64,000 bases of DNA from an uncultured Bacteroidota bacterium. Its GTDB lineage: Bacteria; Bacteroidota; Bacteroidia; 2-12-FULL-35-15. Made by a program: the position numbers and the translations under genes. The notes below the pieces were generated by a model. It was not told where the DNA came from and did no database searches. It worked only from the letters and a program-made list of their open reading frames with translations. The DNA lies in contig CAINDA010000065.1 in assembly GCA_903847205.1 (NCBI GenBank), positions 1,267-65,266 on the forward strand. Direction: 5' to 3'. Numbering within the stretch: position 1 is the stretch's first letter; each line of letters opens with the position of its first letter. This document shows positions 2,955 to 55,552 of the stretch, one piece after another.

Positions 2955-3006
2955 CCGCTAACATTATGTAAGCGTGCGAAAAGCACGCCTACATACTCGT
3001 TAGTGG
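2955..3006 (+). repeat. attC-like imperfect palindrome 1 (ccgCTAAC…GTTAGtgg), 52 bp
   Basis: 'ccgctaacattatgtaagcgtgcg' pairs with the reverse complement 'ccactaacgagtatgtaggcgtgcg' except for one mismatch and an inserted 'g'. The loop is the short sequence 'aaaa'. Confidence 0.55.
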
Positions 3007-3081: not shown

Positions 3082-3675
3082 ATGAAAATGATTTACGCAA
3101 TAATCGGACTTTTACTAGTCGCTGGAGTTACTTTCTATTTAACAAGTTGCAAGAGCAAATCAACAACTGACGAGCAGACAGGACAATCGAATAAAGTTGA
3201 CCCTAAGAACAATCCATATAACGGTCTCCGGAATATGGCTTTCAGTGCGACTGCGGAGCAAATTGGAGTTCAGCTTCCTGTAGACCAAACTAAAATTTAC
3301 GGAGTAATTATGGACTGGGACGTAGGAAATGGCACAGCGACACTTGTTTCATTTCTATCAGGAGACGCAAGTTTATATTTAAGTTCAGGAGGTGGTTTTA
3401 TTGGTGGGGTGGGGCATGACAATGTAAAACAAGCAGGAGAAGCATTTATAAATAAGGCGGAAAAATATTTAGGCAAAGTAACAAAAACAGAAGAGAATCC
3501 TCTTCCTGACAAAGATGGTGTGAAATTTTATTTTCTTACTAATAAAGGAAAATTTGTTGCTCAAGAGAGTATTAAAAATTTTGAAAACAATTCTTCCGAG
3601 TGGCTTGACTTATTTGAAGAAGGGAACAAATTAATAACAGAAATTAGAATTAGTTCTGAGAAAAATGAAAAGTGA
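3082..3675 (+). CDS. Hypothetical lipoprotein (putative cassette 2 ORF)
   Basis: Signal peptide with lipobox 'YLTSC'. A polar, Gly-rich mature region follows. The ORF is bounded by attC-like palindromes. Confidence 0.5.
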   Translation: MKMIYAIIGLLLVAGVTFYLTSCKSKSTTDEQTGQSNKVDPKNNPYNGLRNMAFSATAEQIGVQLPVDQTKIYGVIMDWDVGNGTATLVSFLSGDASLYLSSGGGFIGGVGHDNVKQAGEAFINKAEKYLGKVTKTEENPLPDKDGVKFYFLTNKGKFVAQESIKNFENNSSEWLDLFEEGNKLITEIRISSEKNEK

Positions 3676-3711
3676 AATTGAGCGACCCGACAATAATAAT
3701 AAGGTTTACTG

Positions 3712-3792
3712 CCACTAACATTAAATATGCAATACCTTTGCCGACACGCTCAAAAGCCAAATGCGCGGCATCGCATATTTGATCGTTAGGTG
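3712..3792 (+). repeat. attC-like imperfect palindrome 2 (ccaCTAAC…GTTAGGTg)
   Basis: The arms 'ccactaacattaaatatgc' and 'gcatatttgatcgttaggtg' pair with each other. The internal sequence 'gccgacacgc…gcgcggcatcgca' is shared with the site at 2086-2166. The 3' end 'GTTAGGT' fits the GTTRRRY core. Confidence 0.55.
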
Positions 3793-3818
3793 TCATTTGT
3801 AAGACGACAGAATAAGAC

Positions 3819-4487
3819 ATGAATTTATACGACTGTATTTCAAAAGACGATATTAGTGGGGCGACAAAGTTGCTTGAAAAAGGTGACAACCCAAATCAAT
3901 TAGACGAACATGGACAGACTCCTCTTTTTAGAATAGTTTATAATAAAACTCCAAGACAAATGGAGTTACTAAAATTGTTTATTGACTCTGGAGCTAATGT
4001 TAATTTCGAAAGACCGGACGGAACAACACCCATCTTTCATGCAAAGGGAGAAATTGCTGAACTCTTACTTGACAATGGAGCGAAAATAGAAAAAAAATCA
4101 AAGAATGGTTCGACACCACTCCATTATTCGTTAGACGTAGACACTATAAAAATCTTTTTAAAGGCTGGACTTTCTATTAATGCCAAAGACGACTCACTTT
4201 CGACTCCATTGCATACGTATGTTTACTTTGGTAGCCAATTAGTTGAATTTGCAATTACAAATGGAGCGGACGTCAATGTCAAGGACAAATACGGTCGAAC
4301 GCCTCTTGTTTGTTTAGCAATGACAGAAGGTGCTGATGAAAATGACAATAATGATATAATCAAAACAGCTCAAATATTAATTGACGCGGGAGCCGACATT
4401 AATTCAATTGACTCGGAGAAAAAAGGAGCTATTGATCATGCTATTGAAAATGACAATTCAATGCTTGCAGACTGGTTGAGATTTTAA
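3819..4487 (+). CDS. Ankyrin-repeat protein (putative cassette 3 ORF)
   Basis: Six tandem ~33-aa repeats carry the canonical 'G.TPLH.A…G…V..LL..GA' ankyrin signature, e.g. 'DEHGQTPLFRIV', 'KNGSTPLHYS', 'KYGRTPLVCLA' and 'DAGADINSID'. Confidence 0.75.
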   Translation: MNLYDCISKDDISGATKLLEKGDNPNQLDEHGQTPLFRIVYNKTPRQMELLKLFIDSGANVNFERPDGTTPIFHAKGEIAELLLDNGAKIEKKSKNGSTPLHYSLDVDTIKIFLKAGLSINAKDDSLSTPLHTYVYFGSQLVEFAITNGADVNVKDKYGRTPLVCLAMTEGADENDNNDIIKTAQILIDAGADINSIDSEKKGAIDHAIENDNSMLADWLRF

Positions 4488-4502
4488 GGAACAAACAAAC
4501 GT

Positions 4503-4635
4503 CACCTAACAGCGCACTGGCGCTATTTGGGTATTTGAGTAAAATGATAATAGGAGTTTTTAAATTACATTTGTCTTACCGACAAATTTGATTTCAAAAA
4601 TCCCAAACAGCGCCAGTGCGCAAAACGTTAGCAGC
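4503..4635 (+). repeat. attC-like imperfect palindrome 3 (cacCTAACagcgcactggcgct…agcgccagtgcgcaaaacGTTAGcagc), ~133 bp
   Basis: The ~30-bp arms are reverse complements with bulges. The left arm 'ACCTAAC' fits RYYYAAC. The arm sequence is very similar to the site at 5296-5394 and is followed by the shared tail 'CAGCAAGGCAA'. Confidence 0.55.
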
Positions 4636-4661
4636 AAGGCAATCGCAGACCGACACATGAC

Positions 4662-5282
4662 ATGAAATATAGACCGACACCATTAAATATTGTTTGTGGA
4701 CTTGCAATCGGACTTGCAATTTATTCTGCCGTAAAACCTGGACCTGAAGGTTGGGGTTTCTTAATGACAATATATCTCATTCCTGTAATTGTTATCGGAC
4801 TGTTAGCTGACTTCATTTTACAAAAATTTCTTCCCAAATATCTTCTGACATTTGTAATTGAACTTTTGCTTTTAACAGTTATTTACTTTGCATATTGTTG
4901 GACACAGCGAGCTAAAACACTTATCATACCTGATAAACTGCAAAGCCAATATGTTGTGACAATCTATGGTGTAGAAAACTCAGCAAAACTTCCAGACGGT
5001 TGGAACTACGAAATTAAAGTGCCGACTAACGGTATTCTATTGACTTCCTCAACCTTTGACAGTGACTTATCTGAGACAAAAATGAAAACTTACTCAGGAA
5101 TTAACCTTAACTCAGACGAGACAGAATTAGGTTGGGTAAGAATAACACATGACAAGTTTGACTGCAATGGTAAGACTTATGAATATCAATTTTGGATGGT
5201 GGACAGTTCTTGTTGTACGTATTCCAATCACGACATTGACAGTTTTAAAATAACTTTACAAAAACAATTCTGTGGACGATAG
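4662..5282 (+). CDS. Hypothetical membrane protein (putative cassette 4 ORF)
   Basis: Three N-terminal hydrophobic helices precede a Cys-containing soluble C-terminal region. The ORF is flanked by the nearly identical attC-like sites 3 and 4. Confidence 0.45.
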   Translation: MKYRPTPLNIVCGLAIGLAIYSAVKPGPEGWGFLMTIYLIPVIVIGLLADFILQKFLPKYLLTFVIELLLLTVIYFAYCWTQRAKTLIIPDKLQSQYVVTIYGVENSAKLPDGWNYEIKVPTNGILLTSSTFDSDLSETKMKTYSGINLNSDETELGWVRITHDKFDCNGKTYEYQFWMVDSSCCTYSNHDIDSFKITLQKQFCGR

Positions 5283-5295
5283 ATTAACATGCCCA

Positions 5296-5394
5296 GCTGC
5301 TAACAGCACATTTGCAATAGGCGGGGTTTCGTGCTCCGCATAAACATTAGTGGTAAAAATCCCGCCCATCGCAAATCTGCAAAACGTTGGCAGC
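5296..5394 (+). repeat. attC-like imperfect palindrome 4 (gctgCTAACagcacatttgc…gcaaatctgcaaaacGTTGGcagc)
   Basis: The arms are reverse complements with a 'gtttt' bulge. The 3' end and tail 'aaaacgttggcagcaaggcaa' is nearly identical to that of site 3. Confidence 0.55.
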
Positions 5395-5416: not shown

Positions 5417-6207
5417 TAATGAGACAATTATTATTACTTATTTTTTATTCCACATCGACCATTCAACTTTCAAATGCGCAAGACAATAAATTTTTATTAT
5501 CAGGAAATACTACCGACTGTAAGACACATAAAAATATCAAAGGAGTAGAATTAAAATTATTTTGCAGTGACGGGCGCACTCTTGAGACATTTTCGGACTC
5601 CTTGGGTAGTTATTACTTCGACAGCTTTTTACTAAAAAAAAATATGAAATATGTCGTAACCACTGAGGTAACACGAGATTTAGGATATATTAATAGCTCT
5701 GGTAGATACAAATTTGGAACCTTCGACAGCGTTTCAAATAAGAATATAAAACAAGATTTCTGTTTGGTGCGAATAGAGCCCTGTACACTTGGTACTTTTA
5801 GAATATATTTTAAAAAAAATAGTGAAGAAAAATATTATGTCGACACATTGAGTATGGATTTAGAATCATATATAATGTTTATGAATGATAACCCAAGTTT
5901 CGTTATTGAAATTAACTCCAATTGTAGCTTTGACGAAAAGAATCCAGATTCGCTTTCTAAGAAACGAGCTGAATATTTAAAAAATATATTAATCAAAAAA
6001 GGAATAAATAAAGACAGAGTAGTTATTAAAGCATTGGGAATTAAACACCCTTCAGTAACCAAAGACCAAATTAATAAATTCCAAAGTTTAAAAGAAAAGG
6101 AAGAAGCAAACAGGAGCAATAGAATAGTGTTTTTCCAAATTATTAGAAAGGACTTTCCTGTTGACAACAAATCACAAAAAATTATTGATACAAACGACAC
6201 AGAATGA
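5417..6207 (+). CDS. Secreted OmpA-like C-terminal domain protein (putative cassette 5 ORF)
   Basis: The start was moved from the ORF-track position 5350, which lies inside the palindrome, to the ATG at 5417. That ATG gives a signal peptide 'MRQLLLLIFYSTSTIQLSNAQ'. The C-terminal 'LSKKRAEYLKNILIKKGINKDRVVIKALGIKHP' resembles an OmpA peptidoglycan-binding domain that lacks the GHTD motif. Confidence 0.5.
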
Positions 6208-6506
6208 AGATGGAGTGTGTTACGACCGCAGGGTTATTAAAGTTTTCAGGCAAGACCTGTGAGTAATAAGACCGGAGCGTGTTACGACCGAAGGGTTTTT
6301 AAAGTTTCTCGCTACGGCCTGCGCGTATTAAGACCGGAGCGTATTACGACCGAAGTGTTTTTAAAATTTTTCGGTAAGACCTTTGTGTATTTAGACCGGA
6401 GCGTATTTCGACCGCAGGGTTTTAAGTTTTTCGTTAAGACCTATGTGTATTAAGACCGGAGCGTGTTGCGACCGAAATGTTTTAATGTGTTTCGTTAAGA
6501 CCCCGG
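6208..6506. repeat. Five tandem copies of a ~61-bp repeat (consensus ~TAAGACCGGAGCGTGTTACGACCGAAGGGTTTTTAAAGTTTTTCGGTAAGACCTGTGTGTAT)
   Basis: Direct reading shows five head-to-tail units at roughly 80-90% identity with no unique spacers. The array starts directly after the stop codon of the last cassette ORF. Confidence 0.8.
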
Positions 6507-6658
6507 TAGGCGCGAAGTTGAGGGTAGATAAGAGGGAAGATACTTCGTGTCATTAATAAAAGGTAAGCTGTGCTTACCATACACAGCGCGTACATTTCCC
6601 GTTAAGCAGTATATCCAACTCCGCTTAATTTAACCTGCATCCAGCCGAAACACTCAAA

Positions 6659-7189
6659 TTATATTTTTACTCCTTCTTTATTTCCAGGCATCACCCCATT
6701 CCCAATCCCGCAATTCTTTAAAGCCGGAAAAAGCATCGGAGCAATTTTCCCGATAGGCTTGTATAATAATGACTGCTCTTTCATTTTAAATGAAACAACA
6801 GGATAACTTTTTTCAGCTGCATCCATCACAAAAATAATTACACTCAGTACCAAAGCAAATTTTAATGCACCAAATAATGCACCTATTATTTTATTTATAA
6901 AACCCAAAGCCATCCCTTCAACCAGGCGCTGTAAAAGCTTCCCGATAAAATATACAGTGATAATAATTAGTAAAAATACAAGAGCAAATGAAATTATGGG
7001 CAGGTAAGGGGAAGTCCAGTTGAGCCATGCGCTTAACTTACGGGCAGTTAATTCAGATAAATGAATACCGCCCCAAATGCCCAGCCCGAATGCAATTAAT
7101 GAAGCAGCCTCTAAGATAAGTCCTTTTGTAAAGCCTTTATAAAGCCCCCAAACCAGAGGGATGCAGAGAAAGATATCGATGTAATTCAT
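6659..7189 (-). CDS. cvpA: CvpA family membrane protein (colicin V production protein homolog)
   Basis: Starting at the internal Met gives 'MNYIDIFLCIPLVWGLYKGFTKGLILEAASLIAFGLGIWGG', a typical CvpA N-terminus. The protein has four TM helices. Confidence 0.7.
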   Translation of the reverse strand: MNYIDIFLCIPLVWGLYKGFTKGLILEAASLIAFGLGIWGGIHLSELTARKLSAWLNWTSPYLPIISFALVFLLIIITVYFIGKLLQRLVEGMALGFINKIIGALFGALKFALVLSVIIFVMDAAEKSYPVVSFKMKEQSLLYKPIGKIAPMLFPALKNCGIGNGVMPGNKEGVKI

Positions 7190-8525: not shown

Positions 8526-8611
8526 AATTTATTTATAATTTTTTTTTAATAAATTTTATAAATCGAAAAGTATGTTTAAATTTTATTCTGTAATAGTGTA
8601 TCCCTGCCCGC

Positions 8612-8785
8612 TTTCTCGACTCCGCTCGAAATGGCATCGCACGTTGGCAGGCAAAGGGGAAAAATGTCGAAGTGGGCAGGTCACACTGAGCTTGTCGAAG
8701 TGTTTGGGAAGCCGGCGCACATATTTCGACAAGCTCAATATGACAACACGTAATTCGTTTTCTCCATTTCGAGCGGAGTCGAGAA
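8612..8785. repeat. Nested palindromic element: perfect 23-bp inverted repeat (TTTCTCGACTCCGCTCGAAATGG / CCATTTCGAGCGGAGTCGAGAAA) around a ~128-bp core with an inner 12-bp IR
   Basis: Inverted repeats are visible at 8612-8634 and 8763-8785. An inner pair GAGCTTGTCGAA (8688) / TTCGACAAGCTC (8725) is also present, as is a direct repeat of TGTCGAAGTG. The element is intergenic and no plausible ORF spans it; the 82-aa and 106-aa ORFs in the track are artefacts of the palindrome. Confidence 0.6.
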
Positions 8786-8938
8786 ATGAAGGAAGGCAGA
8801 CCTGCAAATTTTTTAAATGAAATCTAAACTTTACTAAGATGAAAAACTGTTTTATAAAATAAATTAAATCATGCAACCTTTTGAATTCTCTTACATCTAA
8901 CAAAATAAATCAATAATATATATTCTAAAAAAAACACC

Positions 8939-55346: not shown

Positions 55347-55552
55347 TCAAATTTGACCAGCTCCGGCCAAATACGACCAGCGTCCTGCCAAAATTGCCTG
55401 GCTCCGAGTGAAAATTGACCAGCTCCGAACGCAAATTGACCAGCTCCGAATGAAAAATGTCCGGCTCCAAATGAAAATTGACGGGCTCCGAGTGAAAATT
55501 GACCTGCTCCGAATGAAAATTGTCTGGGTCTGAATGAAAATTGACCGGCTTC
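55347..55552. repeat. ~10 tandem degenerate copies of a 21-bp repeat (consensus ~TGAAAATTGACCAGCTCCGAA)
   Basis: Direct reading shows the units 'caaattgaccagctccgaatg', 'aaaattgacgggctccgagtg', 'aaaattgacctgctccgaatg' and so on. The array abuts the stop of the minus-strand AAA gene. Confidence 0.8.

Follow-up and report, generated by a model that had tools for sequence, protein, structure and literature searches.

The array described here lies at the distal end of an attC cluster near the left edge of the window, by which we mean the whole 64-kb stretch of DNA (64,000 nucleotides) that was analysed. The cluster is carried on a 338-kb metagenome scaffold, which the T9SS C-terminal sorting domains encoded on it mark as Bacteroidota. 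We identified five attC sites on the plus strand with a heuristic that looks for hairpins with R'' (RYYYAAC) and R' (GTTRRRY) cores, namely attC0 at 2087-2164, behind a CHU_C/T9SS gene, and the sites at 2956-3005, 3713-3791, 4504-4633 and 5298-5392, the last of which runs from R'' TGCTAAC to R' GTTGGCA. At these sites R'' (..CTAAC or CCAAC) and R' (GTTAG or GTTGG) close an imperfect palindrome, and the bottom strands of four of the five fold far better than shuffled sequences (z -2.5 to -7.2; in order of position -4.8, -2.5, -7.15 and -4.9). The fold of attC0 itself is weak (z = -0.9); this site shares 79-89% identity with its paralogue at 3713-3791 (repeat families D6/D7) and is homologous to the attC at 1773-1851 of a related contig, L001. 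With a relaxed length limit the heuristic returned many false positives in coding regions, and only intergenic sites confirmed by folding were used as attC sites. A sixth attC is located just left of the window, at 3960-4140 of the population assembly L003. The cassette ORFs are all on the plus strand and encode an ankyrin-repeat protein, an OmpA-like protein and several unknowns. No Phage_integrase match was found in the flanking genes or in the mid-sized ORFs of the window, a set that stops short of the largest. Since no integrase lies beside the cluster or among these ORFs, the host structure is a CALIN, the IntegronFinder term for a cluster of attC sites lacking an integron integrase (PMC9024848), here understood as two or more attCs of the same orientation, spaced over a few kb, without intI close by. 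With five such attCs, the sixth upstream and no integrase within several kb, the window fits this description, although the term covers the host structure and not the tandem array, and the distal cassette here is without an attC.

This last cassette carries an OmpA-like cargo ORF of 262 aa at 5419-6207 on the plus strand (Pfam OmpA, E=2.9e-5), a gene call that was confirmed in three assemblies of the same population (L003-L005). The ORF joins the array with no attC between them, the array beginning 4 nt past its TGA (6205-6207). As originally predicted, the array is distal to the last cassette, and it closes the cluster of five attC sites. Beyond it, unique DNA (6503-6658) holds the minus-strand terminator of cvpA, with a stem at 6578-6562 followed by a T-run, and cvpA itself (colicin V production protein family; Pfam PF02674, E=1.5e-25) occupies 6659-7189 on the minus strand as the native chromosomal neighbour. 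We found 582 cvpA homologues in Bacteroidota-type contigs and used their synteny to look for an empty site; the closest relatives are ~72-75% identical and differ in downstream gene order. A tRNA scan was empty, and there is therefore no tRNA-linked integration site. Further to the right, in the intergenic interval 8600-8800, we observed a nested hairpin with outer arms of 23 nt that are 100% complementary (8612-8634 and 8764-8786) and inner arms at 8680-8706 and 8718-8744. Its RNA fold reaches -91 kcal/mol (z = -7.3), its Rfam matches are weak and sub-threshold, and a MITE, an sRNA or a terminator cluster are candidates for it.

The array occupies 6212-6502 on the plus strand, as delimited by TRF, a unit HMM and a register-preserving alignment to positions 473-843 of the related contig L012. 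TRF reports a period of 62, 4.7 copies, 82% matches, 1% indels and a score of 351. The original prediction of five 61-bp repeats was right about the tandem array, and its period and copy number are corrected to 62 and 4.7. Four units (u1 6212-6273, u2 6274-6335, u3 6336-6397 and u4 6398-6457) measure 62, 62, 62 and 60 bp, and a partial fifth (u5 6458-6502; 45 bp) is cut at unit column 46. The unit HMM matches all five (E 1e-11 to 5e-18), on the strand shared with all cassette ORFs. Of the submotifs proposed earlier, which are approximately right, GTAAGACC is exact in a single unit only; TAAGACCGGAGCG was seen 4 times against 0.48 expected from shuffled sequence, and a 26-mer submotif, allowing up to 2 mismatches, occurs 3 times against 0 expected. 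The units run head to tail without spacers, in agreement with the earlier statement that this is not a CRISPR array. The 64-aa ORF at 6259-6453 on the plus strand is likewise an artefact, as had been proposed: 62 is not divisible by 3, none of the six frames is free of stops, and L012 does not preserve the ORF, which is interrupted differently in its orthologous array. Nor is any open frame kept among the homologous arrays that would make this a protein-coding repeat (period 62, stops in all six frames).

A profile HMM found no other significant copy of the unit in the 64-kb window, and BLAST found no match to the array in plasmid and phage collections. A genome-wide search for the unit had been proposed; the unit does exist elsewhere, always in association with attC, and has no further significant copy in the window. 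The proposed variation in copy number was borne out between loci, where the number of copies ranges from about 1 to 6.3. Within the population, the assemblies L003 and L005 are the same as the window over the compared array and flanks, with no visible variation in copy number. L004, a 6223-bp contig from an independent assembly of the same population, ends in unit 2, 79 nt past the stop of the OmpA-like ORF. The repeat breaks short-read assemblies, as at L004, and for annotation purposes the array accounts both for this assembly break and for the spurious ORF call. A second, intergenic tandem array is present at 55390-55550 (period 21, 7.7 copies, TRF score 203, consensus AAAATTGACCGGCTCCGAATG), with about 10 copies if degenerate ones from about 55330 are counted; apart from a GACC core, its sequence is unrelated to the 62-bp family.

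We considered whether the array is itself a degenerate or expanded attC built of tandem partial sites, as had been suggested. In favour of this, it fills the slot in which homologous cassettes carry their attC: the OmpA-like homologues of two other contigs, L091 and L092, have an R''-type attC start right past their stop, and the earlier remark that the array sits where an attC would be expected is correct. However, the hairpin heuristic that recovers the five true attCs found nothing in 6208-6660, and the units, which hold GTT(A/T)CGACC without a complementary partner, have no paired R''/R' cores. When single units were folded as ssDNA, neither strand went beyond shuffled controls (z -1.2 to +1.5), which also settles negatively the per-unit structure check put forward earlier, whereas control attCs elsewhere and in the window gave z -2.0 to -7.2, with attC0 at -0.9 as the exception. 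Moreover, each intact array elsewhere has its own, separate attC behind it. We therefore regard the array as a distinct module that normally precedes an attC, and the degenerate-site reading as extremely improbable. The module does resemble attC sites (59-base elements, VCR-type) in being repeated, cassette-associated DNA whose place is the 3' end and whose orientation is fixed relative to the cargo. It differs from them in lacking inverted R''/R' and L''/L' boxes and a bottom-strand hairpin, in its head-to-tail units, and in being followed by a true attC in intact copies.

The unit family was found in eight other low-GC Bacteroidota-type loci. A scan of GTDB species genomes with a motif common to all four unit junctions returned two Bacteroidota MAG contigs (L001 and L002), and a tandem-aware pattern run on a metagenome collection returned eight loci, five of them true members (L008-L012); the remaining three (L006, L007 and L013; GC 62-71%) were rejected as chance matches. 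A scan of viral contigs with a 14-base pattern gave 76 loci, of which only the IMG/VR contigs L045 and L080 are real, with a single unit each. In both, the cassette (L045 1352-2075, L080 2184-2900) consists of a 175-aa ORF, one unit, the linker and a short attC, on contigs classed as viral, and it adjoins genes for a DnaB helicase and a C5 cytosine methylase. The related loci are all metagenomic and, because they were retrieved with patterns derived from the window array, they are ascertained for similarity; arrays that share descent are also non-independent observations of orientation and position.

The intact order on the cassette top strand is a cargo ORF or an ORF-less leader, 1-7 units, a linker of ~40 nt and the R'' of an attC. 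All nine arrays uncut by contig ends are cassette-oriented and have a folding attC behind them (z -2.0 to -6.8). The linker, conserved in 7-8 of the nine, starts as a diverged unit and ends ...CGAAAGAAAATTTGCYCTGCTGCCAAC, and in seven of the nine arrays 39-43 nt separate the last box from R'' (counted by eye). L012 holds two array-bearing cassettes in succession. The cargo ORFs are mutually unrelated (OmpA-like, AAA ATPase, T9SS-sorted protein and several unknowns), and ORF-less cassettes made of leader, array and attC occur in L001, in L010 and at the end of L002. Those at L001 1-650 and L010 1200-750 (minus strand) are homologous, although they come from two different metagenomes; their conserved leader of ~190 nt has AGACNGTCT palindromes and begins directly at an R' site. 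The same slot holds sister arrays with a period of 30/62 bp in L001 (TRF) and, determined by eye, of ~31 bp in L009 (a related repeat), 30 bp in L011, 49 bp in L010 and ~98 bp in L003, where the repeat is degenerate; all reuse (G)TT(A/T)CGA(A/C)C and GACC-type boxes. At L011 1-250, about eight copies of the 30-bp GTTAGGTGACGGCAGGCGTGGAAACGAGGA stand just upstream of an attC. This repeat opens with 7 nt that fit GTTRRRY, the consensus for R', and over its first 10 nt it agrees at 9 with the R' region of the attC at 3713-3791 in the window.

No integrase was found at any of the related loci scanned; a divergent ORF beside the L008 array was considered as a candidate and discarded, having no Pfam match. 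The module is an optional but recurrent non-coding part of integron cassettes in low-GC environmental Bacteroidota, present in MAGs and metagenome contigs of at least five separate projects with unrelated cargo. To our knowledge, Bacteroidota integrons are almost unstudied. The repeat module is apparently previously undescribed: neither full-text literature searches nor the two key papers on gene-less cassettes yielded a mention of tandem repeats in cassettes.

Alignment with L012 reveals how the window copy departs from this order. The first L012 array is its orthologue, collinear with the window from ~6162 and in register for units 1-5. Unit-by-unit identity is 0.92, 0.84, 0.90 and 0.92, with the diagonal highest for u1, u3 and u4, compared to 0.69-0.88 between paralogous units within the window. 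A co-inherited flank at 6162-6211 on the plus strand, comprising the last ~45 bp of the OmpA-like ORF and 4 nt, also precedes the L012 array, where it stands behind a different ORF; invariant columns begin at ~6162. Homology to L012 stops in the middle of unit 5, at a breakpoint between 6502 and 6503 (...AAGACC|CCGGTAGG...). Past this point L012 continues with 1.5 further units, the linker and a 190-nt attC (z -5.6), and alignment, folding and similarity all failed to find a linker or attC after 6502 in the window. No attC-like hairpin was detected in 6500-6660 (z -0.7 to -1.7), and candidate attC remnants in 6503-6660 (e.g. CCCGTTAAGCAG) were dismissed, having no significant similarity to any cassette DNA. 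The window array is a right-truncated copy of what we call the GACC-box repeat module, and it has lost its own attC. With the linker and attC missing and native chromosome behind it, the array marks the decayed distal end of the attC cluster.

The other end of the array bears on how it came to follow the OmpA-like ORF. The OmpA-like homologues of L091 and L092 (48-58% identity) reside in array-free cassettes with an R''-type attC start directly past the stop; these attC-type sites fold weakly, and the one in L092 is cut by the end of its contig. In L010, the ORF and the array are separated by what is left of an attC, one half of the site; a full attC at this position was rejected, the half site having lost its fold. 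In the window the array is fused directly to the OmpA-like ORF, since the attC that homologous cassettes carry there is gone. The simplest history has three steps. The array, linker and attC would have existed as, or within, an ORF-less cassette; this cassette would then have fused behind the OmpA-like cassette on loss of the intervening attC; and a later deletion would have taken the distal part of the array plus the attC. The series from intact attC (L091, L092) through half attC (L010) to none (window) documents the merging of cassettes and the distal decay of cassette arrays. We hold this anatomical account of the array to be very probable. The window copy itself, being without linker, attC or downstream cassette, is most likely a functionless relic.

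Within the units, conservation is concentrated in short boxes, namely GTGTTnCGACCG, further GACC boxes at +30 and +46 and a T-tract, and the spacers vary. Across 11 array consensuses, GGAGCGTRTTnCGACCG, a T-run and GACC at columns 43-46 and 59-62 are near-invariant. Along the unit, departures from the consensus show strong over-dispersion (index of dispersion 4.5, a value reached in 0 of 10,000 simulations), and this persists when each array is counted once. In the extended window, box 1 occurs 17 times on the plus and 3 times on the minus strand, and 10 of the 17 plus-strand copies fall into three clusters, all within the cassette array. Purifying selection on whole units is not evident, because orthologous units (90-92% identical) diverge at a pace similar to or faster than that of the adjoining flank (~95%). 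Conserved boxes, free spacers, re-assorted periods and the lack of structure together suggest that the array is a set of repeated protein-binding sites on duplex DNA, made of boxes and phased T-tracts, a role predicted here from sequence features and in line with the protein-binding array that was among the options of the original prediction. Plasmid oriV iterons and parC-type sites are tandem arrays of binding sites. The module shares with such iteron and centromere-like arrays its tandem direct repeats, invariant short boxes and variable spacers; here, however, no Rep or Par gene lies alongside and the context is a chromosomal cassette.

Box motifs also occur outside the array. We found a possible relic of one unit upstream of attC0, at 2000-2036 on the plus strand (ATTACGACCTTTGGTTAAAGGACTTTTAGAC), with a weak HMM match (E=1.6 window-wide, 0.0096 when only pre-attC regions are searched) and box clustering. 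The idea that a unit copy at ~2004 brackets the whole cassette array was abandoned, and this copy is rated a possible relic only, because it is not significant window-wide (E=1.6-9). The interval 2000-2036 is nearly identical to L003 4318-4352, which lies upstream of the CHU_C gene. There, at L003 3960-4460 (window about -622 to -122), the sixth attC is followed by ~200 bp dense in boxes (TTTTACGAACTGTG twice, ATACGACCG and GTTACGACCGTATTTAAAGGACTTTTAGAC), directly upstream of the CHU_C/T9SS gene. As a near-identical 35-bp copy follows its stop, the 2-kb CHU_C gene lies, inside a cassette, between direct repeats of the unit family. Past the array cassettes of L012, at 3204-4906, we observed genes for a histidine-kinase-like protein, a DUF7793 protein and a stand-alone LytTR DNA-binding protein. 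Direct repeats are the usual target of LytTR domains, and this last protein is a candidate binder of the boxes; as a single co-occurrence, it is only a lead.

Under the reading we favour, the boxes would bind a sequence-specific protein, and the array, placed at the attC-proximal end of the cassette, would provide activator or promoter sites by which transcription across the attC and into the following cassette is driven or modulated. By analogy, gene-less cassettes are known to carry sense-strand promoters in Treponema oral integrons (PMC6557892) and in Vibrionaceae superintegrons (PMC11014356). Like the module, these cassettes hold non-coding content upstream of attC, in the sense direction toward the next cassette, and the module, too, occurs without an ORF (L001, L010 and the end of L002). 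Unlike them, the module is often fused behind a cargo ORF, has a promoter consensus in one subfamily only, and is built of tandem box repeats, which the two papers do not mention. In that subfamily, TAAGTTTG (-7-like) is present in the units and TTTG-N21-22-AAAATTTG in the linker. The degenerate array directly upstream of the CHU_C gene also counts toward a regulatory role. The Bacteroidota sigma-A-type motif (TTTG N19-21 TAnnTTTG) was found in 4 of 14 array and linker regions, none of them from the subfamily of the window; a sigma-A promoter was discarded as a defining feature, as the motif is not conserved across subfamilies. The fixed distance of 39-43 nt between the last box and R'' fits a recombination role at least as well. 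We consider the specific regulatory function tentative and less likely than not. For the explanation as a whole, a right-truncated cassette module with predicted binding boxes that would have a cis-regulatory role, we estimate a probability of roughly 0.5.

The main alternative to cis-regulation is an accessory role in attC recombination, in which the boxes would serve as sites for the lineage's integron integrase or for a host architectural protein, aiding folding or synapsis of the adjacent attC. This likens them to DR1/DR2 of attI1 or to the arm-type sites of other tyrosine recombinases, which are direct repeats beside the recombination core site; the direct repeats of attI1 are GTTACGC and GTTATGG. 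As in those systems, GTT-core direct repeats stand 5' of the recombination core in fixed orientation: the arrays are always on the R'' side of attC, similarly oriented and with the last box at its 39-43 nt in 7 of 9. The units open with GTT(A/T)CGA, and the 30-bp sister array of L011, with GTTAGGT, fits the R' consensus GTTRRRY. However, the module adjoins attC instead of attI, has many more copies, and its CGACC core is unlike GTTRRRY. CGACC is invariant, and of all columns in the box the one just after GTT is conserved least; set against the GTTRRRY-like core of attI-type accessory repeats, the conserved core (T)TnCGACCG departs from RRRY at positions 4-7. The degenerate array upstream of the CHU_C gene does not adjoin an R'', and most attCs at the same loci work without arrays. 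An accessory function is on this evidence improbable, though one to be kept in mind. Neither a regulatory nor a recombination role is established, because the promoter motif is unconserved and the core mismatches GTTRRRY.

The non-coding content of integron cassettes is poorly understood, promoters and one sRNA being all that is documented. A broader conjecture, to which we assign a still lower probability than to the accessory role, is that the GACC-box arrays could be a cis-acting part of Bacteroidota integrons that has so far gone unrecognised. At a fixed ~40 nt from R'', they would offer binding sites to the integrase or a partner protein and would control how the attC folds and recombines, or how the next cassette is expressed. 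Array, linker and attC would also form an ORF-less cassette in its own right, one that fuses time and again behind genes unrelated to each other. If true, genes could gain their attC in this way, which would bear on the open question of how cassettes arise. A module of this kind would offer a handle on the expression or recombination of Bacteroidota cassettes that are far from any Pc promoter.

A serious rival to our favoured cis-regulatory reading is a neutral satellite made beside the attC hairpin, for example by replication slippage, that spread with the cassettes and has no function. A satellite had been among the options of the original prediction. It is consistent with the strong hairpins adjacent to the arrays, with several array families of different periods in one slot, and with the variation in copy number between loci. 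Orthologous units are no more conserved than their flank, as a satellite would have it, and the arrays are dispensable, homologous cassettes being found without them. Against this stand the strongly box-like conservation across subfamilies and the stably inherited order of units between the window and L012, which have been neither homogenised nor hypervariable. Arrays of unrelated period furthermore reuse the boxes, as do ORF-less cassettes whose leaders are conserved, and the literature searched reports no such repeats for the well-studied cassette arrays of Vibrio, Xanthomonas and Treponema. We treat the satellite as the weaker explanation, with a minor yet real share of the probability, larger than that of the accessory role.

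Finally, the array might act at the RNA level, as the 3'UTR of the cargo or the body of an ORF-less transcript whose motifs bind an RNA-binding protein or an sRNA, with the repeated GGAGCG, AGGACU and CGACC serving as a sponge or stability element. The orientation of the arrays is constant relative to cassette transcription, the ORF-less cassettes have a conserved ~190-nt leader ahead of the array, and there is a precedent in the sRNA of a Xanthomonas integron cassette, as cited in PMC6557892. However, linkage to attC explains the constant orientation equally well, and neither a conserved structure nor an Rfam family was detected. Folded as RNA, the whole array gave z +0.1 and +0.4, and neither units nor array went beyond shuffles as DNA or RNA on either strand; in alifold runs on dimers of nine array consensuses, the plus strand was equalled by 14 of 100 column shuffles and the minus strand by 83 of 100; and the arrays had no Rfam match in the window region or at seven related loci. 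An RNA-level function is on these grounds unlikely, and ranks slightly below the conjecture of a cis-acting integron component. On L009, which is also array-bearing, we observed a DUF805 RNA motif (RF03081) at 4771-4836 on the minus strand, scoring 78 bits and above the gathering threshold.
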